A DNA stretch of 64,000 nt from Heterodontus francisci (lineage: Eukaryota). The notes beneath the pieces were generated by a model. The model worked only from the letters and a program-made list of their open reading frames with translations, searched no databases and was not told where the DNA came from. This document shows positions 4,596-61,099 of this stretch, one piece after another (the first letter of the stretch is position 1; every line of letters starts with the position of its first letter). The translations under genes and the position numbers were made by a program. The stretch spans positions 12,072,062 to 12,136,061 of the forward strand of contig NC_090410.1 of assembly GCF_036365525.1 (NCBI RefSeq), given 5' to 3'.

Positions 4596-6222
4596 GAGAT
4601 CAGGGAGGGGGATTGTGATATACTTGAACATATTAACATCGAAAGGGAGGAAGTATTAGCTGTTTTAGCGGGCTTAAAAGTGGATAAATCCCCAGGCCCA
4701 GATGAGATGGATCCCAGGCTGTTGTGTGAGGGAAAGGAGGAGATAGCAGGGGCTCTGACACAAATTTTCAAATTCTCTCTGGCCACAGGGGAGGTACCAG
4801 AGGATTGGAGGACAGCGAATGTGGTACCATTATTTAAGAAAGGTATCGGGGATAAACCGGGTAATTATAGACCGGTGAGTCTAACATCAGTGGTTGGGAA
4901 ACTATTGGAAAAAATTCTGAGGGACAGGATTAATCTCCACTTGGAGAGGCAGGGATAGTCAGCATGCTTTGTCAGGGGGCGATCGTGTCTAACTAACTTG
5001 ATTGAATTTTTCGAGGTGGTGACTAGATGTGTAGATGAGGGTAAAGCAGTTGATGTTGTCTACATGGACTTCAGTAAGGCTTTTGTTAAGGTCCCGCATG
5101 GGAGATTGGTTAAGAAGGTAAGAGCCCATGGGATCCAGGGCAATTTGGCAAATTGGATCCAAAATTGGCTTAGTGGCAGGAGGCAGAGGGTAATGTTCGA
5201 GGGTTGTTTTTGCAAGTGGAAGCCTGTGACTAGTGGTGTACCACAGGGATTGGTGCTGGGTCCCTTGCTGTTTGTAGTGTACGTTAATGATTTAGACGTG
5301 AGTACAGGAGATATGATCAGTAAGTTCACAAATGACGCGAAAATTGGTGGTGGTGTAAATAGTGAGGAGGAAAGGACGATTACAGGACGATATAGATGGG
5401 ATGGTAAGATGGGCGGAGCTGTGGCAAATGAATTTAATCCTGAGAAGTGTGAGGTGATGCATTTTGGGAGGACTAACACGGCAAGGGAATATACAATGGA
5501 TGGGAAGTTCAGAAGGACCTTGGTGTACTTGTCCATAGATCACTGAAGGCAGCAGCACAGGTAGATAAGGTGGTTAGGAAGGCATATGGGATACTTGCCT
5601 TTATTAGCTGAGGCATAGAATATAAGAGCAGGGAGGTTATGATGGAGATATATAAAACGCTAGTTAGGCCATAGCTGGAGTGCTGTGTACAGTTCTGGTC
5701 AACACACTATAGGAAGGATGTGATTGCACTGGGGAGGGTGCAGAAGAGATTCACCAGGATGTTGCCTGGGCTGGAGCATTTCAGCTATAAATAGAGACTG
5801 AAAAGGCTAGGGTTATTTTTCTTAGAGTAGAGAAGGCTGAAGGGAGATATGATTGAGGTAGACAAAGTTATGAGGGGCATTGATAGGTTAGATAGGAAGA
5901 AACTTTTTCCCTTGGTGGAGGGGTCAGTAACCAGGGGGCATAGATTTAAGGTAAGGGGCAGGAGGTTTAGAGGGGATATGAGGAAAAAAAAAATTCACCC
6001 AGAGGGTGGTTGGAACCTGGAACGCACTGCATGAAGAGGTGGTAGAGGCAGGAACCCTCACAACGTTTAAGAAGTATTTAGATGAGCACTTGAAATGCCA
6101 TAACATACAAGGCTACAGGCCAAGTGCTGGAAAATGGGATTAGAATAGTTGGGTGCTTGATGGCCAGCACATACAAGATGGGCCGAAGGGCCTGTTTCTG
6201 TGCCGTATAACTCTATGACTCT
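4596..6222 (+). mobile_element. CR1 LINE, 5'-truncated, RT region to 3' tail
   Basis: ORFs 4587..4958, 4998..5546, 5849..6034 with RT motifs; ends GGGCCGAAGGGCCTGTTTCTGTGCCGTATAACTCTATGACTCT. Confidence 0.93.
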
Positions 6223-10274: not shown

Positions 10275-10672
10275 CATAGAGTTATAGAGTCATAGAGTTA
10301 TACAGCACAGAAACAGGCCCTTCAGCCCATCGTGTCTGTGCCGGCCATCAAGCACCAAACTGTTCTGATCCCATTTTCCAGCACTTGGCCTGTAGCCTTG
10401 TATGCTATGGCATTTCAAGTGCTCATCTAAATACTTCTTAAATGTTGTGAGGGATCCTACCTCTACCACCCCTACAGGCAGTGCGTTCCAGATTGCAACC
10501 ACCCTCTGAGTGATTTTTTTCCCCCTCAAATCCCCTCTAAACCTCCTGCCCCTTACTTTAAATCTATGCCCCTGGGTATTGACCCCTCCACTAAGTTTCT
10601 TCCTATCTAACCGATCAATGCCCCTCATAATTTTGTATACCTCAATCATGCCCCCCCTCAGCCTTCTCTGCT
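10275..10672 (-). mobile_element. CR1 LINE 3' end (same subfamily as 4596-6222)
   Basis: ORF 10290..10694 (QRRLRGGMIEVYKIMRGIDR...TQRVVAIWNALP) and the same CTCTATGA tail. Confidence 0.9.
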
Positions 10673-10689
10673 GAAGATTATGTCCTATG

Positions 10690-11012
10690 CCCATCCATCT
10701 TCAGCTGCTTCATCAATGACCTCCCCTCCATCATAAGGTCAGAAGTGGGGACCTTCGCTGATTGCACAATGTTCAGTACCATTCACGACTCCTCAGATAC
10801 TGAAGCAGCCCGTGCCCAGATGCAGCATGACCTGGACAACATCCAGGCTTGGGCTGATAAGTGGCAAGTAACATTTGCTCCACACAAGTGGCAGTCAATG
10901 ACTATCTCAAACAAGAGAGAATCTAGCCATCTCCCCTTGATGTTCAATGGCATTACCATTGCTGAACCCCCTACTGTCAACTTCCTGGGGGTCACCATTG
11001 ACCAGAAACTGA
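10690..11012 (+). mobile_element. RT fragment of another LINE family
   Basis: ORF 10745..11044 FADCTMF..DLDNIQAWADKWQVTF..LGVTIDQKLN. Confidence 0.8.
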
Positions 11013-11014
11013 AC

Positions 11015-12135
11015 TTCAGCAAGAGTGAATCGTTAACAAAGTGACTCCTGACCACGCAGTGGCTCGCCGACATCATCAGAGCACTCCAAGCTGCGCGCAT
11101 GCGCAAATGGTCTGCTCTCAGTGAGATGCTGTGCATGCATAGCCTGCGTCTGCCAGAGCTAATTGGCGCCTGTGCGGGAAAACGTCATCAGTTACATGCT
11201 CTCCCCACTCAGCTACTCTCTTCCCCCCTTGGCCATTCGCTGCAGGCCTCGACGCTTTCTCCCGCTCCTCCCTAAAGGCCGCTTCCTCCCCTCAGCCACT
11301 CGCTCTAGACCTTACCACTGCTGTCCCCCATTCCCCTCGGCTGATTGTTCCCCGCTCCTTGCTTCCCACCGGCCACCCCACTCTCCGGCTGCTCGCTGCC
11401 CACTTCTCCCCCTCTTCCCCCATCCAGACGCTAGCTTTAGGCCGCGCCGCTTCCCTCTTCTTGGCCACTCACTCCTGTGTCGCCCCGTCACCCCTCGCAG
11501 CCTGCCTTGCTTCTGCGATCGAATGTGGGAGCGAGTGGCTGGGAGGAGGAAAGTGGTGCGGCATAGAGCTAGCATCTGGAGGAGTGGGGGTGGGGGCGAG
11601 GAGTGGAGAGCGAGCGGCCGGAGAGCAGGAAGCGAGGACTGGGGAACAATCGGCCAAGGGGAAAGTGGGGAGCAATGCCGAGGTCTGGAGTGAATGTGAA
11701 TTGGGAGAATGGGAGATCGGGAGTGGGGCAGCAATTCAGTTATTTCCTCCATAAACTTCAGTGTAAGTGTTGACTTTACCATGCCATAGAAAGTTGCTTT
11801 ACATTCCAAATTTCAATGGCAGTATCATACTGGAGATCTGTCTTTGTCAAAAAAAATCAAAACAGTTGAACAGGAGACATCCAACAAATGAAGCAATGCC
11901 AGGAGGGATCGGGGGACTGTTGGGGGTGGGATGGAGGCAGCGATGGCAACCTTTGAGGGGATTTTCGGGTTGAAGTTGTTTTTCTGTGATAATTTGAGCA
12001 GCGCTATCTTTAATCCTGGCAGCTGCCTGAACGTCATAGACAGTGACGCTTCAGTGGAAGAGGCTGCACTTGCGCATGTGCTGGTACCACACCACCTAGT
12101 GGCTGCGTTGTTAGCAAACGCAGCCAATTGTTAAT
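11015..12135. repeat. Unclassified GC-rich insert with long internal imperfect inverted repeat (about 11297-11697)
   Basis: 11423-11475 matches the reverse complement of 11528-11580 at 42/53 positions; further complementary blocks outward (about 11333-11365 vs 11627-11662). Confidence 0.6.
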
Positions 12136-21339: not shown

Positions 21340-24300
21340 GAGCGAGAGAGGAGCAGGGAAAAAGTGAAAAGTGGCATCAGAGTAACGTCACAATCGACAA
21401 TGAGAGCAGGGAAACGGAGAGCTGCTGGGGTGAGTATACAGGTAAGCTTTTAATTTAATTTAAATCAAAAATAGCATAACACTTGATTGATTAGTACATA
21501 AACTAAAAACTAAAGCGAATTTTATAATTTATAATAGAGTGAGACCAGCAGTGAGTGTATTAGTTCAAATGAGGACTTAATACATAAGCTGTATTATGTA
21601 TTATTAGGGTTTATCAGTATTTGTAAGGTTTACTAACAGTAGTAAGGTTTATTAGTATTGGCAAAGCTTTATTATCATTGGTAATGTCTAGCAGACTCGC
21701 AGAGTGCAGATTAAAACCTGAGTGTGGAGAGTTCGGTGAAGGGGGCAGAGGTGCTCCATTTTTCCTTTTTTTGGGGTACTCTTTTAACCCTCCAGTATTT
21801 GGTTCTTTCTTCGGTGCAATGGAAGGAGCTGTTTTGTGAGTACCTGGTAAGCTGTGACATCACAGGCAAGCAGGTAGCTGATTGGTTTGGGAAGAAGCTA
21901 CCTGTTTGGTATCTGGTAAGTAATTAAGGTCCATTCTAATCCTAACATTTAAAATAGTTAAGGAACTAGTGGTAAGCTTAATAAAATATATATCAAAAAA
22001 GAGGAAAATAAAATAAATAATTGAATAAAATAATTAAATAGCTAATTAAAACACATTAAGGAGGGCAGGACAGGTGATGTGTCACGGCTGCAGCATGTGG
22101 GAGCACGTGGATTACAGTGTGATCCAGGGCAAACACATCTGCAGTAAGTGTTTGCGGCTCGAGGAGTTTTGGCTCAGAGTCATTGCACTGGAGTCTGAGC
22201 TGCAGACACTGCAACACATCAGGGAGGGGGAAAGTTACCTAGACACTTTGTATCAAGAGGCGGTCACACCCCTTAGGATAGGGTCTTCTGATTTGGTCAG
22301 GAGAGTGTGACTGCAGCTGAGGCAGGTAAGGGGACCCAGAGGGCAGGAGTGCAGGAGCCTCAGCCTTTGCGATTGTCCAACAGGTTTGAGGTTCTTTCAA
22401 CTTGTTTGGATGAGAGTGGGGGCTGCAGGGTGGATGTGCAACCTGACCATAGTACAGAAAGCCATTCAAGTGGAGGGAGAAAAAAGGAATGTATTGGTAG
22501 TAGGGGACAGTAGAGTTAGGGGGATTGACACTGTTCTCTACAGCAAATAGCGAGAGTCCATATGGCTGTGTTGCCTGCCAGGGTTCGGGACATCTGCTCA
22601 GAGCTGGAGAGGAACAGTGGGAGGGGGAGGATCCAGTCATCGTAGTCCATGTCAGTACTAACGACATAGGCAGGACAAAGAAAGAGGGTCTGCATAGTGA
22701 GTATGAGGAACTAGGCACCAAATTTAGAAGGAGAACTTCAAAAGTAATAATCTCTGGATTATTACCTGAGCCATGTGCAAATTGGCATAGGGCAAGTAAG
22801 ATTAGAGAAATTAATACGTGGCTCAAAGACAGGTGTGGTAGAAGTGGGTTCTGGTTCGTGGGGCACTGGCACCAGTACTGGGGAAAGTGGTGGCTGTACC
22901 GTTGGGACGATCTACACCTGAACCGTGCTGGGGCCAGTGTTCTAGCGAGCTGCTTAACTAGGGAAGTAGCGAGGGTTTTAAACTGAATAGTGGGGGCAAG
23001 GGATCAAATTTGGGAAGATATGGTAAATCAAGGACAGAATATAAAAAACAGCAAAGAATGAATAAAAGATTGATCAGGTAAAATTAGAGTATGAGAGAAA
23101 GCTAGCTAGAAATATAAAAACATATAGTAAGAGTTCCTATAGATATTTAAAAAAGAGAAGTTAACAAAGTGAGTGTTGGTCCTATAGAAAGTGAGTCTGG
23201 GGAATTAATAATGGATAATAAGGTGATGGCAGATGAATTGAACAGATATTTTGCATCAGTCTTCACTATTGAGGATACAAGTAACATCCCAATATTAGCT
23301 GTAAGTCAGGAAATGGAAGGGAGGGAGAAACTCAAGAAAATTACAATCACCAGGGAAGTGGTACTGAACAAATTGTTGGAGCTGCGGGCTGACCAGTCCC
23401 CGGGTCCTGATGGACTTAATCCTAGGGTCTTAAAAGAAGTGGCTAGTGAGATAGTTGATGGGTTAGTTTTAATTTTCCAAAATTCCCTTCATTCATGGAA
23501 GGTTCCGTTAGATTGGAAAATAGCGAATGTAACTCCTTTATTCAAAAGGGAGGGAGACAGAAAGCAGGAAACTACAGGCCAGTTAGCTTAACATCGGTCT
23601 TGGGCAAAATGTTAGAAGCTATTATTAAAGGCGTTCTAGCAGGGCATTTAGAAAAATTCAAGGTAATCAGGCAAAAGTCAACATGGATTTGTGAAAGGGA
23701 AATTATGTTTAACCAATTTTTTGCAATTCTTTGATGGAGTTACATGTGCTGTGGATAAAAGGGAACTGGTGAATGTATTGTACTTAGATTTCCAGAAGGC
23801 ATTTGATGAGGTGCCACATCAAAGATTATTGCACAAAATAAAAGCTCATGGTGTAGGGGGTAACATTTTGGCATGGATAGAAGATTGGCAAGCCAACAGG
23901 AAACAGTAGGCATAAATGGGTAATTTTCTGGTTGGCAAGATGTAGCAAGTGGTGTGCCACAGGGATCTGTGCTGGGGCCTCAACTTTTTACAATTTATAT
24001 AAATGACTTTGATGAAGGGACCGAAGGTATGGTTGCTAAATTTGCTGATGACACAAAGATAGGTAGGAAAGTAACTTGTAAAGAGGACATAAGAGGGCTA
24101 CAAAGGGATATAGATAGGTTAAGTGAGTGGGCAAAGACCTGGCAAATGGAGTATAATGTGGGAAAATGTGAAATTGTCCATTTTGGCAGAAAGAATAAAA
24201 AAGTATATTATCTAAATGGTGAGAGATTGCAGAGCTCTGAGATGCAGAGGAATCTGGATGTCCTAGTGCATGAATCACAAAACATTAGCATGCAGGTACA

Positions 24301-24935
24301 GCACGTAATTAGGAAAGCTAATAGAATGTTGTTTATCGCAAGGGGAATTGAATACAAAAGTAGGGAGGTTATGCTTCAGCTATACAGGGCATTGGTGAGA
24401 CCACATCTGGAGTACTGTGTACAGTATTGGTCTCCTTATTTAAGAAAGGATGTAAATGCGTTGGAGGCAGTACAAAGAAGTTTACTAGACTAATCCCTGG
24501 AATGGGCAGACTGTTTTACGAGGAAAGATAGGACAGGCTATGCTTGTATCTGCTGGAATTTAGAAGAGTAAGAGGCAACTTAATTGAAACATATAAGATC
24601 CCGAGGTGTCTTGACAGGGTGGATGTGGAAAGAATGTTTCCCCTTGTGGGAGAATCTAGAACTATTTAAAAATAAGGGGTCACCCACTTAAGACTGAGAT
24701 GGAGAAATTTTTTCTCTCAGTGGAACACTGAGTGGAATTCTCTTCCTCAAAAGGCGGTGGAAGCAGAGTCTTTGAATATTTTTAAGGCAGAGGTAGATAA
24801 ATTCTTGATAAGCAAGGGGATGGAAGGTTATCGGGGTTAAGTGGAAATGTGAGTAATCAGTTCAGCCATGAACTTATTGAAGGCGGAGCAGGCTCAAAAG
24901 GCCGAGTGGCCTACTCCTCCTAATTCGTATGTTAT
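21340..24935 (+). mobile_element. Near full-length CR1 LINE of another subfamily (5'UTR, ORF1, RT, 3' tail) with endonuclease region deleted
   Basis: ORF 22074..22310 (CHGCSMW..HICSKC Zn finger), 22525..22986 (VHVSTNDIG..DDLHLN), 23169-24493 RT motifs (PQGSVLGP, FADDTK). Confidence 0.9.
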
Positions 24936-38119: not shown

Positions 38120-38760
38120 CCCTCCGCTTGATTGACATCTGAACCAGCCAATCAGCTCAGCACATCGGGTTCGTCACCCAATTAGCCATAAAACGTGATT
38201 AGATTATAAAAACCGGAAAGCAAGCAGCTGAAGCTTTGCGGCCTGAGAGGGACATGAAACCGCCGGAGAAACAAGAACAACCAAGTCTGTGAGGCCGCAT
38301 TCCACCGTTGGCGCGTTTATTTCTTAGTTGACTGACAGTTTCCGAAGCCAATCGGTAAGCGGATTGCTGACAGGATCGGCCAATTAGGAGTGGATGGGGG
38401 CGGAACATCCGGTTGGGGGCGAGGGGGCGGTTTGACGGTTGGAATCCGGGACAATCCGTGTCAATCGGTGAGTTCGCGGCGCTATTGGCGGCGGAGAGCC
38501 CGCGGGGGTGCTTTACCCCAACCGTCCCCGTGTGCGGCGGCCGATTTTGCGATCCGAAACGTGCCCGAAGAGCCGCGATCTTACCGCTTTTGTCCGGAGC
38601 AGGCCTCTGGCGGCCCGCAGCGAGGGGGTCGGGGGGGGTTAAAGGTCTGACGGCCGGCTGGTAGCTTCCGGTTCACGGCCGGCGAGGCGGGGTGAGGCAC
38701 CGATCCTGGCGGCGGGCAGGAGAGAGTGGGGTTGCCTTGGCTCTGGCGGAGGGTGTTCGA
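38120..38760. promoter_or_regulatory. CpG-rich bidirectional promoter ACTMAP/SNRPA
   Basis: High CpG density; CCAAT at 38148, 38178, 38348, 38380, ATTGG 38484; GC boxes GGGGCGG near 38397 and 38424; ETS-like CTTCCGG 38665; candidate first-exon donors at 38584 (-) and 38692 (+). Confidence 0.8.
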
Positions 38761-39725: not shown

Positions 39726-39798
39726 ATGTCTGCCCAAGAGGCCCGTCCAAACCACACCATCTACATCAACAATCTAAATGAGAAGATTAAAAAAGATG
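39726..39798 (+). CDS. SNRPA: SNRPA (U1 snRNP protein A) first coding exon
   Basis: Acceptor at 39706, [30 protein letters not shown], donor gtaatt. Confidence 0.96.
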
Positions 39799-39898
39799 GT
39801 AATTACTCGGGGATGGAGCTGGGGTAGCAGTGTGTTGAGTTAACCAGTTGGACATAAGAGCATTTGGATACAGCGATTACAGAATTTTACAGCACGGG

Positions 39899-40234
39899 GT
39901 GCGCAGTGGTTAGCACCGCAGCCTCACAGCTCCAGCGACCCGGGTTCAATTCTGGGTACTGCCTGTGTGGAGTTTGCAAGTTCTCCCTGTGTCTGCGTGG
40001 GTTTTCTCCAGGTGCTCCGGTTTCCTCCCACAAGCCAAAAGACTTGCAGGTTGGTAGGTAAATTGGCCATTATAAATTGCCCCTAGTATAGGTAGGTGGT
40101 AGGGAAATATAGGGACAGGTAGGGATGTGGTAGGAATATGGGATTAGTGTAGGATTAGTATAAATGGGTGGTTGATGGTCGGCACAGACTTGTTGGGCCG
40201 AAGGGCCTGTTTCAGTGCTGTATCTCTAAACTAA
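39899..40234 (+). mobile_element. HE1-like V-SINE
   Basis: Near-identical to the 39182 copy. Confidence 0.92.
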
Positions 40235-40607
40235 AGAAATGCTATTTGACCCAATTGGTCCATGCAAGTTTCCTCAACCTCTTCGCCTTGCTCTATCAAC
40301 ATGGCCTATTCCTTTCTCCCTCATGCTTATCTACCTTCCCATAATGGCAGTTTGACTCAGCTATTCCCTGTGGTAGCAAATTCCACATTCCAACCTTTCA
40401 CAGTTTAAACAAGTTTCTCCTGAATTCCTCATTGGATTTATTGGTAACTACCTTATAATTATTTTTAAGGCAGAGGTAGCTAGATTCTTGATAAGCAAGG
40501 GGGTGGGAATGTGGAGTAATCAGTTCAGCCATGAACTTATTGAATGGCGGAGCAGGCTCGAAGGGCCAAGTGGCCTACTCCTGCTCCTAATTCGTATGGT
40601 CGTATGG

Positions 40608-40815
40608 ACCAGATAAACTTTTTGTGATGTTGATTGAGGGATAAATATTGGTCAGGACACCAGGGAAAACTCTTTGCTCTTCACAATGGTGCCGTAGGCC
40701 TCAGTTTAACATCTCATCCAAAAGATGGCACCTCCGACAGTGCAGCACTCCCTCACTACAGCACTGGAGTGTCCGGCTTGATTTTTATGCTCAAACCCTT
40801 AAATGGGACTTGGAC
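40608..40815 (-). mobile_element. DeuSINE fragment (adjacent CR1 tail at about 40460-40605)
   Basis: GGCACCTCCGACAGTGCAGCACTCCCTCA block in reverse. Confidence 0.7.
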
Positions 40816-41106
40816 CCAGAACCTTGTTGTTTTGAGCCATGGCTGACACTAGTTCGGGCATAATTCTTATTTTTTTTAGAAAAAAATTTGCACCTTCTCC
40901 AGTGTGTTTTATATTCTTGTAATAAAGACACCAGAACCATACATGGCATGGCACAATATGAGTAATGATATTTAACATCAACCAGATTTACCAGACATTA
41001 ATGAATTTAAATTGTGGTTTTCACTAGTGAATGAAAACTGACCGGAGATATTAAAGTCTGGCTGTACTTGCAGCTATAGGCTGAGTTGAAGCAGAAACCG
41101 ATTTGA

Positions 41107-41376
<270 letters not shown>

Positions 41377-41882
41377 TGATCTAAACATTCCACTGATGCA
41401 GTCAGGCTGTGACTGATGAGTGCATAGAATTTACAATTCTGCCCAATAGGCTGCACGAGAGTCTAACCCCATCAACATATCCTTCTATTCTTTCTCCCTC
41501 GTTCTTATCTAGCTTCCCCTTAAATACATCTATGCCATTGGCCTCAACTGTTCCGTGTGGTAGCAGGTTGTTATTGGAGCAGAGAAAGTCAAGGGGAGAT
41601 TTGATAGCAATTTCAGCTCTGATCGGTCTGACGTCCTCATGCCAGCTGTCAGAGTGAAACTGACTGACTCAGTCCAGCCACTGCTGCTTTACATTTCCTC
41701 ACCGGCATAAATTGTAATCTGTTTGTAGAGGATTTTCTTGGCTGCAGAGCAACTTAAAATGTCTGTGCGTGAGTGGAGGCCCATAGAGTTTGGTCTACTA
41801 GATCGCTCTCTCATGGGATAACCCTCGTGCAAATGGCCTGTGGTGTTCCAGTGGTTTAACGTATCTTTCCCCTTGTCAACAG

Positions 41883-42050
41883 CGGATTCAGTATGCAAAG
41901 ACTGATTCTGATATTATTGCCAAGATGAAGGGCACCTATGTGGAACGTGACCGAAAGAAGGAAAAGAGGAAGGTAAAGGCTCCTGAACCTTCTGGCAACA
42001 AGAAGGCTTCGGCAGCCCCCACAGCCAACTCTGTACCCCCTCCTGTCTCG
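41883..42050 (+). CDS. SNRPA: SNRPA coding exon 3
   Basis: [30 protein letters not shown]; aacag/gtaagt. Confidence 0.96.
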
Positions 42051-42991
42051 GTAAGTCTGATCGTCTCTGATCTGGTTATGGAGATACCCGTGACTGGATG
42101 TGAATGAGCAACTGAAGTAACCTCTTTCCTCATTCAGAAAAGGGGTATGGCACATGTATTGGATGAAGTCTTAATCTGAGGTGGCAACTCTTGTCCGAAG
42201 CATAACCCCAAAGGGATATTGGCTGGGGGTGGGTTATTTGAAGTCCAGACGAATTCTGTCCAGCTGTCTTCCCCGCCCTTCCCCCACACTACTGTCCCGT
42301 GATCCTCAATGAGGGTATTGATTACTGCTGCACTCAATTGGCTAACTCTGAATGAGGCCTTCCTAGTCAGCTTGACATGTACTGCCCTTTCTGGCTCACC
42401 AGTCACTATTTCTTTCCAAATGAATTTGTAGTGTTATTCGCTTGATTTAAAGGCAACATTTGATGTAATAGAAATTGGTTTTAAAGAACATTCCCTACTG
42501 GATTTTTGACGTTCATGTCTTTCTATTACAAGAACTCCCTGTATTTAGTAGTGCCAGTTAAATGGGTCTGCCCTGCCGGTGAATATTCTCCAGTTCAGTT
42601 GCTGGTTTCTCTGTCTCTACAGGACAAGCTAGGCCAAAAGCAATCAAAACATTAGTTTGGCATGTTTACACTTGGCCCTGCCATCCTTTTTTTTACTTTT
42701 GTGTTTCTCCGCATCCCTTTATACCACCGTTGATGGCTGTGTCTTCAGTCACCTAGGTCCCCTGCTCCTTGAGCCCTGTAAAACCCATCTTTGACCTCGC
42801 TTTTGGTCTTGCTCTTTTCTCCTGACGTATCTTGGATGTTGACACAGTTGGGGGGATGCCATGGTAACAGATTCTTCTGTTTGCATCTAGTTGTTCAGGT
42901 ATAAAATGATTATTGACTCTTGGCTATTGTGTAGATATTGGTGACTTGTTCTGTGAGCTAGTGTCTGTTTATTCACTGCTGTTTGTTCTAG

Positions 42992-43165
42992 GGGATGCCC
43001 ATGATGAACCAGGGCCCACGGATGATGCCAATGCCAGGACAGCCTCACTACATGCCACCACCTGGGATGATGCCACCCCCTGGGATGGCACCTGGCCAGA
43101 TGCCACCAGGTTCCATTCCTCCTGGTCAGATGATGCCTGGGCAGATGCCACCCCCTGCTCAGACG
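42992..43165 (+). CDS. SNRPA: SNRPA coding exon 4 (Pro/Met/Gly-rich linker)
   Basis: [40 protein letters not shown]; ttctag/gtaagt; long linker indicates U1A rather than U2B''. Confidence 0.95.
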
Positions 43166-43587
43166 GTAAGTGTTCGGTCAGTGTGGGAGGTGATACGGTG
43201 ATGGAACTGTTGCTGTACCCGCCCTCTGGGAATTGTAGTCACCCGTGTGCAAACTTGGTAGTTTCCTTAAAGAAAAGTCCTCAGTACAGTGGGGTGCTCC
43301 TTGCTGTCTGGTGAGTGCTCACAAGAAATCTCTTCTATCGGTGAGAGTGTTTTAAGTTAAATGCTTGCGTTTGCAGCTCGGCTTAATTCCTGTTCCTGAC
43401 ATCACCCAGCATTCCAGCACATGGTAGGTGCTCAGTGTCTGCTGGATCGCTGAGCAGCTTTCAGAGCAGAGCAATTAGTCTAGAATATGAGTCACTCATT
43501 GGGGATGTTTGTTGAGGGGATTGTTGGGGGGGGGGGGGGGGTTGCACATGATCTATGCCAGTGTGGAAGGGTAGAGTGCATTGTTTC

Positions 43588-46500
43588 TCATCGTTATACA
43601 GTACAGAAACAGGCCCTTCGGCCCATCGTGTCTGTGCCAGCTGTCAAGCACCTATCTATTCTAATCCCATTTTCCAGCACTTGGCCTGCAGCCTTCTATG
43701 CTATGGTGTTTCAAGTGCTCATCTAAATGCTTCTTAAATATTGAGGGTTCCTGCCTCTACCACCCCTTCAGGCAGTGCGTTCCAGATTCCAACTACCCTC
43801 TGGGTGAAAAGATTTTTCCTCAAATCCCTCTAAATCTCCTGCCCCTTATCTTAATCTATGCCCCCTGGTTATTGTCCCCTCCACTAAAGGAGAAAGTTTC
43901 TTCCTATCTATCCTATCAATGCCCCTCATAATTTTGTATACCTCAATCAGGTCCCCCCTCAGCCTTCTCTGCTCTAAAGAAAACAACCCTAACCTAGCCA
44001 GTCTCCTCATAGCTGAAATGCTCCAGCCCAGGCAATATCCTGGTGAATCTCCTCTGCACCCTCTCCAGTGCAATCACATCCTTCCTATAGTGCGGTGACC
44101 AGAACTGTACACAGTACTCCAGCTGTGGCCTAACTAGCTGTATTTATACAACTCCATCATAACCTCCCTGCTCTTGTATTCTATGCCTTGGCTAATAAAG
44201 GCAAGTATCCCATATGCCTTCCTAACCACCTGATCTAACTGTGCTGTTGCCTTCAGTGATCTATGCACAAGTGCACCAAGGTCCCCCTTTACTTCATAGG
44301 GTCCTACCATCCATTGTATATTCCCTTGCCTTGTTAGTCTTCCCAAAATGCATCACCTCTCAGTACCTCTCAGGATTAAATTCCATTGCCACTGCTCTGC
44401 CCATCTTACCAGCCCATCTATATCATCCTGCAATCGAAGGCTTTCCTCCTCACTATTTAGGACAACACCAATTTTTGTGTCATTTGCGAACTTACTGATC
44501 ATACCTCCTATATTCACTTCTAAATCATTAATGTACACTACAAACAGCAAGGGTCCTGGCACTGATCCCTGCAGTACACCACTGGTCATAGGCTTCCACT
44601 TGTATAAACAACCCTTGACCATTACCCTCTGCCTCCTGCCCTAAGCCAATTTTGGTTCCAATTTGCCAAATTGCCCTGCATCCCTTGGGCTCTTATCTTC
44701 ACCAATCTCCCAAGCGGGACCTAATTAAAGCCTTACTGAAGTAGACTACATCAACAGCTTTACCCGCATCTACACATCTAGTCACCTCCTTGAAAAATAC
44801 AAAGAACAGTACAGCACAGGAACGGGCCATTCAGCCCTCCAACCCTGTGCCAATCTTGATGCCTGCCTAAACTAAAACCTTCTGCACTTCCAGGGTCTGT
44901 ATCCCTCTATTCCCATCCTATTCATGTATTTGTCAAGATGCCTCTTAAATGTCTCTATGGTACCTGCTTCCACCACCTCCCCCGGCAACAAGTTCCAGGC
45001 ACTCACCACCCTCTGTGTAAAGAACTTGCCTCGCACATCCCCTCTAAACTTTGTCCCTCGCACCTTAAACCTATGTCCCCTAGTAACTGACTCTTCCACC
45101 CTGGGAAAAAGCTCTGACTATCCACTCTATCCATGCCGCTCATAACTTTGTAAACCTCTATCATGTCGCCCCTCCACCTCCATCGTTCCAGTGAAAACAA
45201 TCCGAGTTTATCCAACCTCTCCTCATAGCTAATGCCCTCCAGACCAGGCAACATCCTGGTAAACCTCTTCTGTACCCTCTCCAAAGCCTCCACGTCCTTC
45301 TGGTAGTGTGGCGACCAGAATTGCACACAATATTCTAAGTGTGGCCTAACTAAAGTTCTGTACAGCTGCAGCATGACTTGCCAATTTTTATACTCTATGC
45401 CCCGACCGATGAAGGCAAGCATGCCATATGCCTTCTTGACTACCTTATCCACATCCATTGCCACTTTCAGTGACCCGTGGACCTGTATGCCCAGATCTCT
45501 CTGCCTGTCAATACTCCTAAGGGTTCTGCCATTTACTGTATACCTCCCACCTGCATTAGACCTTCCAAAATGCATTACCTCACCTTTGTCCGGATTAAAC
45601 TCCATCTGCCATTTCTCCGCCCAAGTCTCCAACCGATCTATATCCTGCTGTATCCTCTGACAATCCTCATCACTGTCCGCAACTCCACCAACCTTTGTGT
45701 TGTCCGCAAACTTACTAATCAGACCAGCTACATTTTCCTCCAAATCATTTATATATACTACAGAGCAAAGGTACCAGCACTGATCCCTGCGGAACACCAC
45801 TAGTCACAGCTCTCCATTCAGAAAAGCACCCTTCCACTGCTACCCTCTGTCTTCTGTGACCGAGCCAGTTCTGTACCCATCTTGCCAGCTCCCCTCTGAT
45901 CCCATGTGACTTCACCTTTTTGTACCAGTCTGCCATGAGGGACCTTGTCAAAGGCTTTACTGAAGTCCATATAGATAACATCCACTGCCCTTCCTTCATC
46001 AATCATCTTCATCACTTCCTCAAAAAACTCAATCAAATTAGTGAGACACGACCTCCCCTTCACAGAACCATGCTGCCTCTTGCTAATAAGTCCGTTTGTT
46101 TCCAAATGGGGGTAAATCCTGTCCCGAAGAATCCTCTCTAATAATTTCCCTACCACTGACGTAAGGCTCACCGGCCTATAATTTCCTGGATTATCCTTGC
46201 CACCCTTCTTAAACAAAGGCACAACATTGGCTATTCTCCAGTCCTCTGGGACCTCACCTGTAACCAATGAGGATACAAAGATTTCTGTCAAGGCCCCAGC
46301 AATTTCTTCCCTTGCCTCCCTCAGTATTCTGGGGTAGATCCCATCAGGCCCTGGGGACTTATCTACCTTAATGCTTTGCAAGACACTCAACACCACCTCC
46401 TTTTTGATAATGAGATGACTGAGACTATCTGCACTCCCTTCCCTCGGCTCATCATCCACCAAGTCCTTCTCCTTGGTGAATACTGATGCAAAGTACTCAT

Positions 46501-49500
46501 TTAGTACCTCACCCATTTCCTCTGGCTCCACACATAGATTCCCTTCTCTGTCCTTGAGTGGGCCAACCCTTTCCCTGGTTACCCTCTTCCTCTTTATATA
46601 CGTATAAAAAGCCTTGGGATTTTCCTTAATCCTGTTTGCCAATGACTTTTCATGACCCCTGTTAGCCCTCCTGACTCCTTGCTTAAGTTCCTTCCTACTG
46701 TCTTTATATTCCTCAAGGGATTCGTCTGTTCCTAGCCTTCCAACCCTTATGAATGCTTCCTTTTTCTTTTTGACGAGGCTCACAATATCCCGTGTTATCC
46801 AAGCTTCCCGAAACTTGCCAAACTTATCCTCCTTCCTCACAGGAACATGCTGGTCCTGGATTCTAATCAACTGATGTTTGAAAGACTCGCACATGTCAGA
46901 TGTTGATTTACCCTCAAAAAGCTGCCCCCAATCTAAATTCTTCAGTTCCTGCCTAATATTGTTATAATTAGCCTTCCCCCAATTTAGCACCTTCACCCGA
47001 GGACTACTCTTATCCTTATCCACAAGTACCTTAAAACTTATGGAATTATGGTCACTGTTCCCGAAATGCTCCCCTACTGAATCTTCAACCACCTGGCCGG
47101 GCTCATTCCCCAATACCAGGTCCAGTACAGCCCCATCCCTCGTTGGACTATCTACATACTGTTTCAAGAAGCCCTCCTGGATGCTCCTTACAAATTCTGC
47201 CCCATCCAAGCCCCGAGCACTAAGTGAGTCCCAGTCAATATAGGGGAAGTTAAAATCACCCACCACTACAACCCTGTTACCTTTACATCTTTCCAAAATC
47301 TGTCTACATATCTGCTCCTCTACCTCCTGCTGGCTGTTGGGAGGCCTGTAGTAAACCCCCAACATCGTGACTGCACCTTTCCTATTCCTGAGCTCCACCC
47401 ATATTGCCTCGCTGCATGACCCCTCCGAGGTGTCCTCCCGCAGTACAGCTGTGATATTCTCCTTAACCAGTAATGCAACTTCCCCACCGCTTTTACATCC
47501 CCCTCTATCCCGTCTGAAGCTTCTAAATCCTGGTACTTTTAGCTGCCAATCCTGTTCTTCACTCAACCAAGTCTCTGTAATAGCAACAACATCATAGTTC
47601 CAAGTACTAATCCAAGCTCTAAGTTCATCTGCCTTACTTGTTCTACTTCTCTCATTGAAACAAATGCACTTCAGACCACCAGTCCCGCTGTGCTCCGCAA
47701 CATCGCCCTGCCTGCTCTTCCTCTTAGTCTTACTGGGCTTATTTACTAGTTCCCCCTCATTTATTTCACTTGCTGTCCTACTGCTCTGGTTCCCACCCTC
47801 TTGCCACACTAGTTTAAACCCTCCCGAGTGACGCTAGCAAACCTCGCAGCCAGGATATTTGTGCCCCTCCAGTTTAGATGCAACCCACCCTTCTTGTACA
47901 GGTCCCATCTGTCCCTGAAGAGATCCCAATGGTCCAGATATCTGAAACCCTCCCTTCTACATCAGCTGTTCAGCCATGTGTTTAGCTGTGTGTTCAATCA
48001 AGTTAGTTAGACGTGAGCTCCCCCTGACAAAGCCGTGCTGACTATCCATGATTAATCCCTGCCTCTCTAAGTGGAGATTAATCCTGTCCCTCAGAATTTT
48101 TTTCCAATAGTTTCCCTACCACTGACAGACTTGCTGGCCTGTAATTACCTGTTTTATCCCTGCTACCCTACTTGAATAATGGTACCACATTCGTTGGCAT
48201 CTCTCTGGCCATAGGATTTGAAAATTTGTGTCTGAGCCCCTGCTATCTCCCCCCTTGCCTCACTTAACGGCCTGGGATACATCTCATCTGGGCCTGGGGA
48301 TTTATCCACTTTTTTATGCCTGCTAAAACAGCTAATACTCCCTCCCTTTCAATTCTAATCTGTTCAACTATATCACAATCCCCCTCCCTGATCTCGATAC
48401 CTACAGCATCCTTCTCCATAGTGAACACAGATGAGAAGTTATCATTTAAAACCTCACCTATATCCTATGGCTCCACACACACATTGCCACTTTGGTCCCT
48501 AATGGACCCTACTCTTTCTCTGGTTATCCTCTTGCCCTTGATATACTTAAAACGCCTTACGATTTTCCTTTACCTTGCCCGCCAGTATTTTTTCATGTCC
48601 CCTCTTCGCTCTCCTGATTACTTTTTTAAGTACCCCCCTACACTTTCTATACTCCTCTAGTGCCTCTGCTGTTTTCAGCGCTTTGAATTTGCCATAAGCC
48701 TCCTTGTTTTTCCTTCTCCAATCCTCTATCACTTGACATCCAGGATTCCCTAGACTTGTTGGTCCTACCCTTCACTTTTAAGGGAACATGTTAGCGCTGA
48801 ACACTCCATTCCTTTTTGAATGACTCCCACTAGTCTGACATAGATATTCCTACAGATAGCTGCTCCCAGTCCACTTTGGCCAGATCCTGTTTTATCATAT
48901 TGAAATCGACCTTCTGCCAATTCAGTACTTTTATTTCTGGTCCCTCTTTGTCCTTTTCCATAACTACCTTTTAAATCTTACAGAATTATGGTCAGTATCC
49001 CCGAAATGCTCCCCCACTGACACTTCTATTACTTGTCCGACTTCATTCCCTAAGATTAGGTCCAGTACTGCCCCTTCTCTTTTAGGACTTTCTACATGCT
49101 AGGTCAAAAAGCTCTCCTCTATGCATTTTAGGAATTCCACCCCCTTTAAGCCTTTTGCACGATGACAATCCCAGTTGATATTGGAGAAGTTGAAATCCCC
49201 TACTATTATTACCCTATTATTTTTACACCTCTCTGAGATTTTACTACGTATCTGCTCCTCTATCGCTCCCTGACTGTAGTAGAGTCCCAGCCAAGTGTTT
49301 GCTCCTTTTTGTTCTTAAGTTCTACCCATATGGCCTCATTTGAGGAACCTTCTAAGATATCATCCCTTCTTACTGCAGTAATTGACTCCTTGATCAACAG
49401 TGCAATGCCACCTCTTTTACACTCTCCCCTGTCACACATGAAGATTCTATACCCTGGAATATTGAGCTGCCAGCCCTGCCCTTCCCGCGACTATGCCTCT

Positions 49501-49635
49501 GTGATAGCAATAATATCATATTCCCATGTATTAATCAACGGCCTCCATTCATCTGCCTTATTAGTAAGGCTCCTTGCGTTAAAATAGATGCAATCCAGCC
49601 TTGCATTGTTAGCTTGTGCCTTAACAGGTCGATAT
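43588..49635 (-). mobile_element. CR1 LINE (older subfamily) split by a nested younger CR1
   Basis: 3' tail near 43590, RT ORFs 43846-44622, resumes at about 47993 and runs through the endonuclease start (ORF 49491..49760 YFNARS). Confidence 0.9.
44798..47992 (-). mobile_element. Young CR1 LINE with almost complete ORF2 (few frameshifts), same subfamily as 1-2878
   Basis: ORF 45818..47809 (663 aa endonuclease-RT), then 45745..46002, 45003..45800, 44872..45099; 5'-truncated in ORF1. Confidence 0.95.
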
Positions 49636-49740
49636 TTGAGGGGCTGCTTGTATTGAGTGCGAGAAGGGGGCTGTCTGGGGGTGGGGCTTGTTGCCATGGT
49701 TTTATGCTGCAATGTTAACTGCCATCCTTCTGGTTTCCAG

Positions 49741-49829
49741 GTGCCTGAGAATCCACCCAATCACATCCTCTTCTTAACTAATCTGCCTGAGGAGACAAAT
49801 GAGCTGATGTTGTCCATGCTTTTTAATCA
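49741..49829 (+). CDS. SNRPA: SNRPA coding exon 5 (RRM2 start)
   Basis: [30 protein letters not shown]; ttccag/gtgagt. Confidence 0.97.
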
Positions 49830-50326
49830 GTGAGTATGGAGAGGGAAAGTGTGAAAGCAGAAACTTCAACTGAGACCTTGAAGGGAGTGGGGGTGCTGAG
49901 TAAATATTGGTCGAGATTCTGCTGGGTGATTTTGGGGTTAAATGTTCCAGACCCTGCCTCTGTTTGCCTGGGCTGTGTGGTTTGGATGGGGTGTATTCTC
50001 TATTGGGGCCCTAGTTCCCTGAGTGATGTTACTTGGGGTGAGGGCAGGATGCAGAGTCCTCCCACTCCAACTGGCTGTCCAGCTTGTCCAGAGAGGTGAT
50101 GTGCCCTTTCATGGTGTGTATTCCATTCTAACCAGGTCACTAACTTTCAGCTGTCTGGCTGCTAGGGACAGTGTAGGCACTGTTCAGAAACTCGGCTGGC
50201 GTGGCCAGAGGTGGAATGAGATAAAACAGTCAAAAGCCTGAGATCAAAGCTGGGGTGGGGGGTTGAGAAGGCAGGGTGGTGCCGGGCTGGCAGGGGAGAG
50301 TAGGATGAAGGACCCAGGAAACGTGA

Positions 50327-50665
<339 letters not shown>

Positions 50666-50771
50666 GGGGTCGGGAGTATTGAACTGGTCAATTCCGGCTT
50701 TGTTTTCAAAAGCTGTTATTTTTGAATTGTGCAGTAACTGGTCTGTATTAGATTTAAAAGTTCTGATGCTT

Positions 50772-50780
50772 CAGGTAAGT
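50772..50780 (+). promoter_or_regulatory. U1 snRNP binding site (5' splice-site consensus) in SNRPA 3'UTR
   Basis: CAGGTAAGT perfect consensus in the terminal exon. Confidence 0.6.
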
Positions 50781-51146
50781 GTCGGGTCAGGAGACTCCTC
50801 AGCTTTCCCCTGCCCTTCGGAGGATCGTTCACACCCAGGTAACCTTCACAGGCGCTCCAGCGACATGCTGGCCCTGTGTGATCAAGGCAAGCTTCTTGCT
50901 TTGCAGTCTGAGGGCTGTTCAGATTGTGTTGTGGATGTTGTATCCTCCCTTTGCCCCAGTCTACCCTGGGTCCCTCAAATCTAAATAATTCACTCCCCTC
51001 TTTCGAATGATATTAGGAACCGATTATGGCCTTGTCCTGACTGGATTTTAACTCTCCAGTGATATTTTAAATTTGGTATCCCCAATTTGGCTGTTTTGAG
51101 TGAATGTGTCTGGCTGAGGCAACAGTTTGGATTAATCGCACTGTAA

Positions 51147-51193
51147 GAAAGCTGTTCACCCAGAGTCTCAGTGACATTGCACCTGGAGCTTTC
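51147..51193 (+). promoter_or_regulatory. U1A polyadenylation inhibition element (PIE) RNA hairpin
   Basis: GAAAGC-TGTTCAC-CCAG-A-GTC-TCAGT-GAC-ATTGCAC-CTGG-A-GCTTTC: three stems, two 7/1 internal loops, canonical AUUGCAC box, 23 nt before AATAAA. Confidence 0.9.
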
Positions 51194-51216
51194 AAACTTA
51201 CTGAACTAACAAGAAG

Positions 51217-51222
51217 AATAAA
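51217..51222 (+). terminator. SNRPA polyadenylation signal
   Basis: AATAAA right after the PIE, followed by GT-rich downstream element (TTGTGAGTGTGTTT). Confidence 0.85.
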
Positions 51223-52724
51223 GAAACTTTTTTTATAACCACCTTGTGAGTGTGTTTATTTATCACCTGAGCTCTAGTACTTTACAAGGTTATGGAGCTT
51301 GGCCTTCAAAACACAGGACCTGCTAATGAGATGTTTCTAATGCATAGAAACAGGCCATTCGGCCCAACTTGCCCATGCTGGTGTTTATACTCCTTCATGA
51401 GCCTCCTCCCAGCCCTCTCCATCTTGCCCCATCAACATCTCCTATTCTTCCTAGTGTTTATCTGACTTTCCCTTAAAGACATCTGTTATTTTCCTCCGCT
51501 CCTCCATAGAGTTCCATATTCAAACTGCTGTCCTAGGTAAAGATTCTCCTGAATTCTCTGTTGGATTTATTAGTGACTTATGGTCCTGAGTGTTGGACTC
51601 CCCCTCTTTTTTTTTTTTCCCCCCCTCCCCACCCACAATAAGATTAGACAGAAAGCTTCCACTATCAAACCCAATCATAAGACATTTCTAAGATCATCTT
51701 AGTTTTTCTAGAGACAAGGAGCTGACACACATGGGGGCTGTACAGTTCCAGATGGGAATGAACTGATCCCTTTTACCTCCTGTGCATTATACAAGAACAA
51801 GAGCTGATGCTGACTTGGTGGTATAAACCTATTGGAACTGATCAATGGGGGGGTGGAAATGGAAATTTGCACTGCCTGCAAATTCTTGCTGAACAGTGGT
51901 ATCTTGTAATGGGGCTGAGGAGGGGCTGGCATGATGTCCCAATAAGTAAGGGAGGGCAGGAAAGAGTGAGTGGACTGTGCACACTGAAAGCTGCTGGAGT
52001 TCTGAAGTGCGGCACCAGCCCTTCACACCTCCATTTATTGAGCATGGTTTAATCAACCTGTTTCTTACAGTGTAAGATGCTCACTCCTGCCGCAGCCACT
52101 GTGAGCAGTCCTTGGAACGGTGTGTTCAGCACAACAGGGACAGAAAGTTTCCAGATTTAGATCAGCTGGTAAAAGGCACCAAGGAGTGTGGTCACAGCTG
52201 TACCTGAAAGACTTGCATCAAATAGGCTTCTGTTGCCTTTTTCTAACCCAGTTCCAAAATAAATTCTGATCCTTAGTGAGGGTTTGGAGTGTTATCCTGT
52301 GCAAGATGAGGTCTTGTTTGTGTTGACTCAGGCAATGCAAGATGGCAGGGTCCAGTTTCTTGGCTGTATTGAGTGGGTCCCACACTGCTGGTGCATGTCT
52401 CTACTGAGACTGAAGTCAACACAGGTGTGTTTAGTACATATGTTCCCTGCTTTGTTTGACGTGGTTCTGGAGAGTTAATGCTAGTAGCTGGTGCTGACTG
52501 GGAATTCGCTGAAAGGGTGGGTGGTAGAGGTACTGGAGTCATACTTTCACCTGAGAGCTGGGTTCATAAACAACATTACCTGATTTAAGGGTCCTACCTG
52601 CAATGGTGGATAGTCTCCATCTGTTCTGCAGCAGCTTTGACCAACAGCAGAAAACTGGCAATTTAACCAGTCATGGGAAAGCTGGTGTGGGAAATAGATA
52701 TCTGTTACACTGGCGTAGTAGGGA

Positions 52725-59018: not shown

Positions 59019-59984
59019 TCAAGGCAGTGGCGCACACTCGGAAGTGGCTTCAAGCGTCTGCTTTGTGGCCGAGGTGGTGGTGGTGGAGAGGCTGCTGTCT
59101 GTCGGCATGTAACCCCCGGAGCATTTCATGGCCTCCTGCAGTCTCAGCAGGGCCCGCGAGTCACTGCTCCGCACGGCGCTGCAGAAGAGCCGGACATGCT
59201 CCTTCAGCTCATCAATTTGCTGCTGGGCGCTGCCGTTCTGTCGGATCAGGTCCTTGGTTTTCAGCGTGATCTCCAGCAGCCCTGACCGGCTCAGGATCTC
59301 CACTGTGTTGCGGAAACGCCGCTGCTTGGCAGCACTGGGGACTGCCCGCCTGGAGACTCTGGTAACTGGTCTTGTGTCGCCACCGGGTGACTGGGCGCTC
59401 GGAGCTCGGGAAAATACGGAGGGGGAGGGGGAGGAAGAAGAGCAGGAGGAGGACGACGACCAGGAGTACAAAGACTCCGAGGATTCAGACTGAGAACCAA
59501 GATTTGGAGAGAGTACCGGCGATGGGGAGACCGAAAGGTCAAACTGACTTAAGTTTGTTACTCCAAACCAGGATGGCTGCTGAGCACTCTCAGCTTGCCG
59601 ACAGTTGCCCACTGGTGCTACATGCGAGGTTTGGTCTTTTCTGGAAGTTTGCTGCAAGGGAATTCCCGCCTCGTCCAGGCACAACCGTGTGCTCTTGCTG
59701 TGATCTGCTGTCCTGTCATCCTGAGCCACACGGTACCCCATCTGAACTTGGCTGCCACTGTCGTCCCGACTTTTGTCTGGGTGAGGGGCTATCCTTGGGT
59801 AGGAGTTTAATATCGGAAGGTAGGTGGCCTTTGCCTCAGTCTTCTGGGATTTCAAAGAAGTTGCCAAAGGCTGTCGGATGAAGACCACTCGGGTCTGGCC
59901 TGCTGGTGCACCAAGCGAGTGTCGACTCCCCCAGGTCTGTAGCTGAGCGCGAACAAGCTGGCTCCTTGTTGGAACGGACAAAGG
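59019..59984 (-). CDS. CLOCK-interacting pacemaker (CIPC)-like protein, last exon
   Basis: gaacag acceptor; motifs YLPILNSYPRIAPHP and KQRRFRNTVEILSRSGLLEITLKTKDLIRQN..Q.QIDELKEH..LF..A typical of the CIPC family. Confidence 0.9.
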   Translation of the reverse strand, partial: PLSVPTRSQLVRAQLQTWGSRHSLGAPAGQTRVVFIRQPLATSLKSQKTEAKATYLPILNSYPRIAPHPDKSRDDSGSQVQMGYRVAQDDRTADHSKSTRLCLDEAGIPLQQTSRKDQTSHVAPVGNCRQAESAQQPSWFGVTNLSQFDLSVSPSPVLSPNLGSQSESSESLYSWSSSSSCSSSSPSPSVFSRAPSAQSPGGDTRPVTRVSRRAVPSAAKQRRFRNTVEILSRSGLLEITLKTKDLIRQNGSAQQQIDELKEHVRLFCSAVRSSDSRALLRLQEAMKCSGGYMPTDSSLSTTTTSATKQTLEATSECAPLP

Positions 59985-61099
59985 CTGTTCAAAACACCAA
60001 TAGGAAAAGCAGAATTAAAATCTAATGGCTTAACGGGATCGCCGCTGCTTGCGACTGTACAACTGGCCCCTGCGCATCCACTCCATGCAAGTCACCCATC
60101 TATTCAATGCGAGTGTGCAACAAGACAGAATTTAACATGAATATTGAATCAGTGCATCTAATCAACATTTGCATGGCAACTGCCAGTGAGCACCCAGTGC
60201 AAGCAGTGAACACACAGAATAACAATAGCTCGGCCAGGATTCCCAGCACTATCGGTAGTAGAGGGTTTTCTCTGGTTTAGTCCAATACAAAGTCAGAATC
60301 CTGGCTCTGGATTACAAAACTGGAACTAGGCAGAGTAGGTCTTGGCCATTTGATCTTTCACTGGCAAGTGTCTTTCTCTTGACAAAACAAATATTCTCTT
60401 TGAAATGAATGTCAATATTGCTTGAACATGCTGAGATGGTTACAACTTACCGAGGTGTTAAACCTTTCACATAACCTGAGTATTACTATTTTCACTCCCA
60501 GTGCTTTGAACAGAAAGTGGAGCTGCCCTTTAGTGAATGGGAACTATTGTCCACAACACTCATTTGCCAGCGTGCAAGCAGAGGATCCACACCATCTACC
60601 CACTCCAACTGTTTCTCATTCGCAAGGCCTTTCCTGCTCCTGTCCTGAAGGCAATCACTCCCACTGGGGTACAGTTCCATAGGGCCACATTTTAATGTGA
60701 ATCTAGACAGCAAGCTTTGGCAAACTATTCTCAATGGGGTGGCATCACAGCCTCCTCACTAGATCAAAGCACAGATGAGAGATCTCCAGTAAGAGGGCCA
60801 CTGTAATGATCAGGAACACTGGCTGATCCATCCCTCCCACTACTAGCCTTGGGCACTGAGGCCAACTCAGGCTCTCCAGAGAACAAGAGCAGTCCACATG
60901 TCATTTATTAAAACCATTTGCTCTCAAAGTGACCTCTGCACTCACCTCTAAGAGTGTATGTTAGGTGAAGCTGCAGAGTCTACCCATGTACGCCCCTTTT
61001 AGACCATGACTGCATGATGTGTCCCTACATTTTTCCTGGCCCGACCCACATCTTAAGAGGGTTTACTATAGAGGACTGTGGAGTAGGGAGGGTCTGTAC

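Follow-up and report, generated by a model that had tools for sequence, protein, structure and literature searches.

The SNRPA locus and its U1A protein

The window, by which we mean the whole 64,000-nucleotide stretch of shark (Heterodontus francisci) DNA that was analysed, carries an intact SNRPA gene on its forward strand. The coding parts of the gene are listed below.

39726..50665, forward strand: U1A (SNRPA) coding sequence for 278 aa in six exons, with an open frame and GT-AG introns
39726-39798, 41129-41301, 41883-42050, 42992-43165, 49741-49829 and 50506-50665, forward strand: SNRPA coding exons

The last SNRPA exon matched human U1A with an E-value of 5.5e-30 (51/52 identical) and matched U2B'' more weakly, with an E-value of 1.4e-25. 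Among the 120 matches listed, the closest named protein was the sawshark U1A (258 of 278 residues identical) and the second was that of alligator (243 identical). Based on the available text of PMC2203988, G4 of the U1A box is read by N15, N16 and E19 and A1 is read by R52. All four of these residues are present in shark U1A. Throughout residues 26-82 the sole difference between shark and human U1A is S48N, which is common to Xenopus and sawshark, and residues 83-112 are nearly unchanged. The gene thus encodes a cognate U1A with the RRM1 readers and the 103-119 PAP-inhibitory segment, of which 103-112 is kept except for R108K, although the segment diverges beyond residue 112.

Several other features surround the gene. 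A GC-rich stretch with CCAAT and GC boxes at 38300-38700, about 1 kb upstream of the SNRPA start codon, is likely the promoter together with a non-coding first exon. Within intron 4 of SNRPA, on the reverse strand, lies what is left of a LINE (45006-47833), including its endonuclease and reverse transcriptase domains, and further reverse transcriptase fragments occur at 168-2250, 4959-5543, 10631-11041 and 23924-24490. Downstream of SNRPA and on the opposite strand, a long exon that matches the CiPC (clock-interacting pacemaker) family spans 59022-60014 (E 4.2e-53). Taken as a whole, the SNRPA 3' UTR outperformed 99 of its 100 shuffled versions in folding (z -2.57), and a long hairpin was predicted in its proximal part (50716-50761) in both the minimum-energy and the centroid folds.

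The PIE and its boxes

The 3' UTR of SNRPA contains the parts of a U1A PIE and of a polyadenylation region, given here with a similar word that lies just upstream.

51135..51141, forward strand: near-box AUCGCAC with C in place of U3, probably no site, at chance level and predicted paired
51147..51193, forward strand: PIE orthologue with outer stem, loop 1, middle stem, loop 2, inner stem and 5-nt apical loop, from Rfam RF00460 and the pair list
51147-51152 with 51188-51193, forward strand: PIE outer stem
51153..51159, forward strand: box 1, UGUUCAC, off canonical at positions 1, 2 and 4, with U3, C5, A6 and C7 kept
51160-51163 with 51183-51186, forward strand: PIE middle stem, 4 bp
51164, forward strand: single A opposite box 2
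51165-51167 with 51173-51175, forward strand: PIE inner stem
51176..51182, forward strand: box 2, canonical AUUGCAC, preceded by the closing C-G pair and facing the single A at 51164
51187, forward strand: single A opposite box 1
51217..51222, forward strand: AAUAAA poly(A) signal, 34 nt past box 2
51240..51263, forward strand: candidate CA cleavage site (51240-51241) with a GU/U-rich downstream element, read from the letters only

The preliminary description had named this element a U1A PIE, and the stems and boxes were all found where it had placed them. The identification held. In an E-value search of 50900-51400, the Rfam U1A_PIE model (RF00460) matched 51144-51212 over its full length (model positions 1-74 of 74) with 36.8 bits and an E-value of 1.9e-6. 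At the gathering threshold no match was returned anywhere in the 64 kb window, the score of the PIE lying under the cut-off of 50, so that the comparison with the Rfam model, which had been suggested as a check, bore out the homology with a score below gathering. The three stems can all pair, with a 4-bp middle stem and 13 Watson-Crick pairs in total, and the outer stem shows one compensatory pair relative to the Rfam consensus. The window has 17 ATTG[CT]AC boxes on its two strands, and only the one at 51176 is surrounded by the PIE stem geometry. A visual comparison was also made with the human 2x U1A aptamer as printed in the accessible text of PMC7102939, an aptamer whose terminal pairs may have been engineered. 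The middle stem, the inner stem, A51164 and box 2 were identical, and the outer stem again differed by one compensatory pair. Differences from the aptamer affect 7 of 42 positions, and four of the seven fall in box 1 (P 0.009); the difference count of box 1 against box 2 alone was not significant (P 0.07). A gapped PIE pattern found no match in the metagenome contigs. The prokaryote genome contigs gave one weak, irrelevant match.

Folding energy told less. The 47-mer was not clearly better than its shuffles (z -1.24; with flanks, z 0.96), so the support for the PIE is homology and not folding energy. The predicted minimum fold pairs CAG with the UUG of box 2 and buries the box. Since the same pairing persists with a human-type box 1, we took it as a limit of the folding model. 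The fold with two 7/1 internal loops lay 5.4 kcal/mol above the predicted minimum and was also not the minimum with a human-type box 1, for which reason the model is regarded as unreliable here. The two 7/1 loops, described earlier as exact, can indeed be drawn, but the folding model favours pairing of U51153 with A51187 (-10.1 kcal/mol against -7.6 kcal/mol with the loop open, 2.5 better), by which loop 1 may shrink to a 6-nt bulge.

The AATAAA at 51217 is the only AATAAA or ATTAAA from the SNRPA stop codon to position 52000. Its spacing of 34 nt from box 2 compares with 19 nt on the Rfam consensus line; the consensus position of the signal is degraded, and the actual signal lies 15 nt further on. 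This longer spacing, absent from the preliminary description, could weaken any PIE effect. Judged from its sequence, the stretch is a true orthologue of the known PIE that departs from the family in two sequence features, the pair of boxes and the conserved distance to the signal, and that scores below the Rfam cut-off.

Where the family has two AUUGYAC boxes, the shark element agrees at 7/7 letters in box 2 and at 4/7 in box 1, confirming the earlier reading of box 2 as canonical and box 1 as not. The changes in box 1 are A1 to U, U2 to G and G4 to U, and positions 1, 2 and 4 are all written in upper case, as highly conserved, in the Rfam consensus. A match of 4/7 letters has a probability of about 0.07 by chance; the 7-nt length of the loop is kept. 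Single substitutions in SL2 were reported to cost 5.0 kcal/mol for A1G and 6.4 kcal/mol for G4A, the latter alone raising the Kd from 0.3 nM to about 11 uM, and A1C is said to be similar to A1G (PMC2203988, in the text available). These costs refer to A1G and G4A in a hairpin, whereas box 1 has A1U and G4U in an internal loop. By extrapolation from those other substitutions we estimate the affinity of box 1 as micromolar or worse. Changes at A1 and G4 are this costly, and the protein still has the residues that recognise these bases, so U1A probably does not use box 1 as a specific site. An altered RNA specificity of U1A to suit box 1 was considered and rejected, as the RNA-reading residues are unchanged, and for the same reason there is no sign of U1A co-evolving with box 1. 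Of the three ways in which the preliminary description had thought the loop might work here, namely through one high-affinity site, a cooperative weak site or the upstream box, the first is supported as the likeliest state.

The second of these would have a U1A on box 2 recruit another U1A, by contacts through helix C, to the half-site U3-C5-A6-C7, so that a dimer would require much free U1A and the set point would merely be raised. The preserved loop length, the middle-stem spacing and the four canonical letters are all in its favour, as are the compensatory pair in the outer stem, the near identity of U1A residues 83-112 and the fact that human box 1 is itself imperfect. Cooperativity in the human PIE amounts to about 2 kcal/mol. 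Two U1A molecules do bind the human PIE cooperatively (PMC6884704, from a partial text), but A1 and G4 are both lost in box 1, at 5-6 kcal/mol each in SL2 (PMC2203988), and U51153 is able to pair with A51187. We regard a cooperative weak site as an unlikely explanation.

The third possibility, in which the second U1A would bind the near-box AUCGCAC instead of box 1, is very improbable. Its letters are at 51135-51141 as claimed, 5 nt from the outer stem, with A1, G4 and A6 kept and a single mismatch at a pyrimidine, a class of change that costs 1.6-4 kcal/mol (PMC2203988, text seen in part). Against this, such words are at chance level: 60 nt should contain about 0.08 one-mismatch boxes and 550 nt should contain 0.72, and the UTR has 2. 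The near-box also has no closing C before it, and it is predicted to lie within a small hairpin (51122-51144) in which its CAC end is paired, with an unpaired probability of 0.03-0.39 at the last two letters. From its position, the geometry would be unable to give the head-to-head spacing across the middle stem.

A sequencing error at box 1, which would have undone the description of a variant PIE, is mostly ruled out. All 77 words sampled from 50500-51300 occur in each of four sequencing runs, and 0.99 of them in two runs from a second study, all these runs being from one sample that is possibly the window's own source. The check rests on sampled words and not on the read letters themselves; about 3.4 sampled words are expected over the changed box 1 letters, and the probability that none covers them is 0.026. 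The share of sampled words in runs of other organisms was 0.33-0.52 for B and 0.05 for C, D and E, and these values were not used as evidence. An assembly or sequencing error is unlikely, and we give it next to no weight.

The terminal-exon U1 snRNP site and the proposed mechanism

The preliminary description did not mention a further feature of the same 3' UTR, which lies upstream of the PIE.

50772..50780, forward strand: U1 snRNP site in the terminal exon, a full match to the 9-mer consensus of 5' splice sites, 107 nt past the stop

The word CAGGTAAGT is a perfect match at this position and has the form MAGGUAAGU in a 3' terminal exon by which such sites are defined (PMC2367729, accessible part). 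Perfect U1 9-mers number 2 on both strands of the 64 kb window against 0.73 expected, and about 0.003 are expected on the sense strand of 550 nt. The human U1A gene has a U1 site upstream of its PIE that acts jointly with the PIE and without splicing (PMC3157836 and PMC2367729, as far as their available text goes). In the shark the distance from the U1 site to the PIE is 367 nt, and inhibition by U1 sites has been reported from as far as 1190 nt upstream of where the poly(A) signal lies (PMC2367729, partial text). A U1A-type locus that is 98% identical (L001, from the metagenome contigs treated below) has a similar U1 site about 140 nt past its stop, although no alignment of the two UTRs was obtained around the U1 site. 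The L001 contig ends 284 nt past its stop, before any PIE, and that span contains no box.

Local folds left the U1 site partly paired, no better than in shuffles (z 0.4 to 0.7), and thus gave no significant occluding hairpin. Just past the PIE, ten letters at 51196-51205 are complementary to the U1 site with one bulge; they fall where the Rfam consensus puts the poly(A) signal. As a base-pairing repressor of the U1 site this segment was rejected, since its duplex energy was at chance level, 37 of 130 control stretches being as good. A second, weaker donor-like word with 2 mismatches is found at 50836-50844, 64 nt downstream of the U1 site, and L001 has two donor-like words past its stop (910-930 and 995-1010) in an arrangement like that of the window.

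A different use of the U1 site would be as the true donor of a 185-nt 3' UTR intron with its acceptor at 50959, whose junction 109 nt past the stop would trigger decay and provide a second feedback route. The donor is perfect, and the acceptor-like site, which occupies 50945-50959 at 185 nt past the donor-like site, has 13/15 pyrimidines. Such acceptors are common by chance, however, occurring in 65 of 290 tiles of 440 nt across the window, and the human site is described, in the partial texts cited above, as acting without splicing. A UTR intron is on this evidence a highly improbable explanation.

The reading that we favour, at a probability of about 0.5, is that one U1A binds tightly to box 2, that the PIE by itself would inhibit weakly, and that U1 snRNP at the upstream site would add inhibition. 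Surplus U1A would bind loop 2 through box 2, while loop 1 would collapse to a bulge that is not specifically read and the outer stem would be kept as a scaffold for loop 2. The single bound U1A would inhibit poorly, as in human, and U1 snRNP on the upstream site would supply the remaining inhibition. This reading is based on the gene, the stems, the box letters, the match to the U1 site, the poly(A) signal, the unchanged U1A readers and the kept PAP-inhibitory segment. Counting against it, the length of loop 1, the 4/7 canonical letters and the preserved outer stem would fit some residual use of box 1. Also counting against it, the U1 site is 367 nt off, has no occluding hairpin that stands out and lies in a UTR that does not align with that of L001 around the site. 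PIE-like action through at least one site is predicted, and the feedback would be weaker than usual or would lean on the nearby U1 site.

The state of box 1 is known from one genome. It may be a recent or private decay, in which box 1 degenerated in the species or the individual under relaxed selection and the element no longer regulates, its intact parts being not yet eroded. The clustering of four changes in box 1, the degraded consensus poly(A) position with the actual signal 15 nt on, and the score below the Rfam cut-off are what such decay might leave behind. The review PMC5071671, in the part available, adds that one U1A is insufficient for efficient inhibition in human and that residues 103-119 are the inhibitory motif. 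Decay sits less well with a box 2 and two flanking stems that are as in human and with a perfect U1 site that is kept, and several separate changes in box 1 would be unlikely as one private allele. We consider decay distinctly unlikely; among the rivals of the favoured reading it comes second, behind the cooperative half-site and ahead of the near-box, the UTR intron and an error.

Age of the self-binding boxes and comparison with known systems

The preliminary description had the feedback loop originate in early jawed vertebrates. A last-exon scan over 23 of 64 parts of the metagenome contigs gave at least 103 stretches encoding relatives, of which the best 80 were analysed. With near-duplicates merged, they formed 68 groups with up to 1000 nt past the stop (46,267 nt), the stop being approximate at four loci and the genomic flanks being able to exceed the true UTR. 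Past these SNF-type genes, canonical boxes numbered 38 on the sense strand against 2 on the antisense strand, in 19 against 2 of the 68 groups. Boxes that follow a C in a stem of at least 4 pairs numbered 23 against 0, in 12 against 0 groups. The two-internal-loop form of the PIE was found in 0 of 80 homologue flanks (the best 80 of 103), and L001 was the only U1A-type locus among these 80. Six loci (L004, L013, L034, L007, L015 and L020) have 2-6 AUUGCAC boxes past the stop, many of them within hairpins that resemble stem-loop II and have a 10-nt loop.

RRM1 was visible in 12 of the 16 box-bearing groups examined (of 19), and 12/12 had a VALKT-type loop and none LVSRS. Both U2B'' and the ancestor that predates the duplication in jawed vertebrates are assigned VALKT (PMC4114683, from partial text), and the box-bearing SNF-type loci are presumably non-vertebrate. 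Because strand-enriched boxes follow VALKT-type SNF-type genes, the putative self-binding sites that follow genes of this family predate the jawed vertebrates. The date proposed earlier is thus too young for the feedback loop, with boxes also present after pre-duplication SNF-type genes; the two-internal-loop form alone may date to jawed vertebrates.

A wider interpretation is offered tentatively, and we think it more apt to fail than to hold in full. Sharks would have a natural one-site PIE in which U1A on box 2 and U1 snRNP jointly supply the PAP-inhibitory motifs of the mammalian U1A dimer. On this view the two-U1A rule would be one setting, tunable and particular to a lineage, of a self-binding loop that is far more ancient and that began as stem-loop-II-like hairpins after a single SNF-type gene. 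The U1A PIE is the textbook case of two bound proteins being needed to block poly(A) polymerase. Here nature provides a copy in which one box is intact, the protein is unchanged and the U1 site is preserved, and this makes it well suited for testing both the two-U1A rule and the reported synergy with the U1 site. If box 1 is degenerate across cartilaginous fishes, this would show evolutionary tuning of the strength of the circuit; if the change is limited to the species, it is only a small instance of a decaying motif.

The element itself, its presence in fish and the human U1 site are already known. Conservation of the PIE in vertebrates has been described (PMC5071671, partial text), and a killifish has one annotated copy (PMC5584509, partial text). 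In a literature search that is weak on this point, with subscription papers thinly covered, we found no report of a shark PIE or of a natural one-box PIE, and existing cross-vertebrate alignments may show a degenerate box 1 in non-mammals.

Compared with the human SNRPA PIE (RF00460), the shark element has UGUUCAC in place of AUUGUAC as box 1, a loop 1 that can be collapsed by a U-A pair, and a 5-nt apical loop. Against RF00460 it also differs in the distance from box 2 to AAUAAA (34 nt in shark, 19 nt in the family) and in its score (36.8, with a cut-off of 50). The shark gene is like the bipartite human U1 site (Guan et al. 2007, as presented in the available text of PMC3157836 and PMC2367729) in that its terminal exon carries a consensus target for U1 snRNA upstream of the PIE, and unlike it in that the shark site is 367 nt from the PIE and has no significant occluding hairpin. 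With U1 snRNA stem-loop II and with the stem-loop-II-like hairpins after SNF-type genes, the element shares the same AUUGCAC after a closing C, on the sense strand and in the same gene family. Those elements are hairpin loops, often in arrays, whereas the shark element consists of two internal loops.
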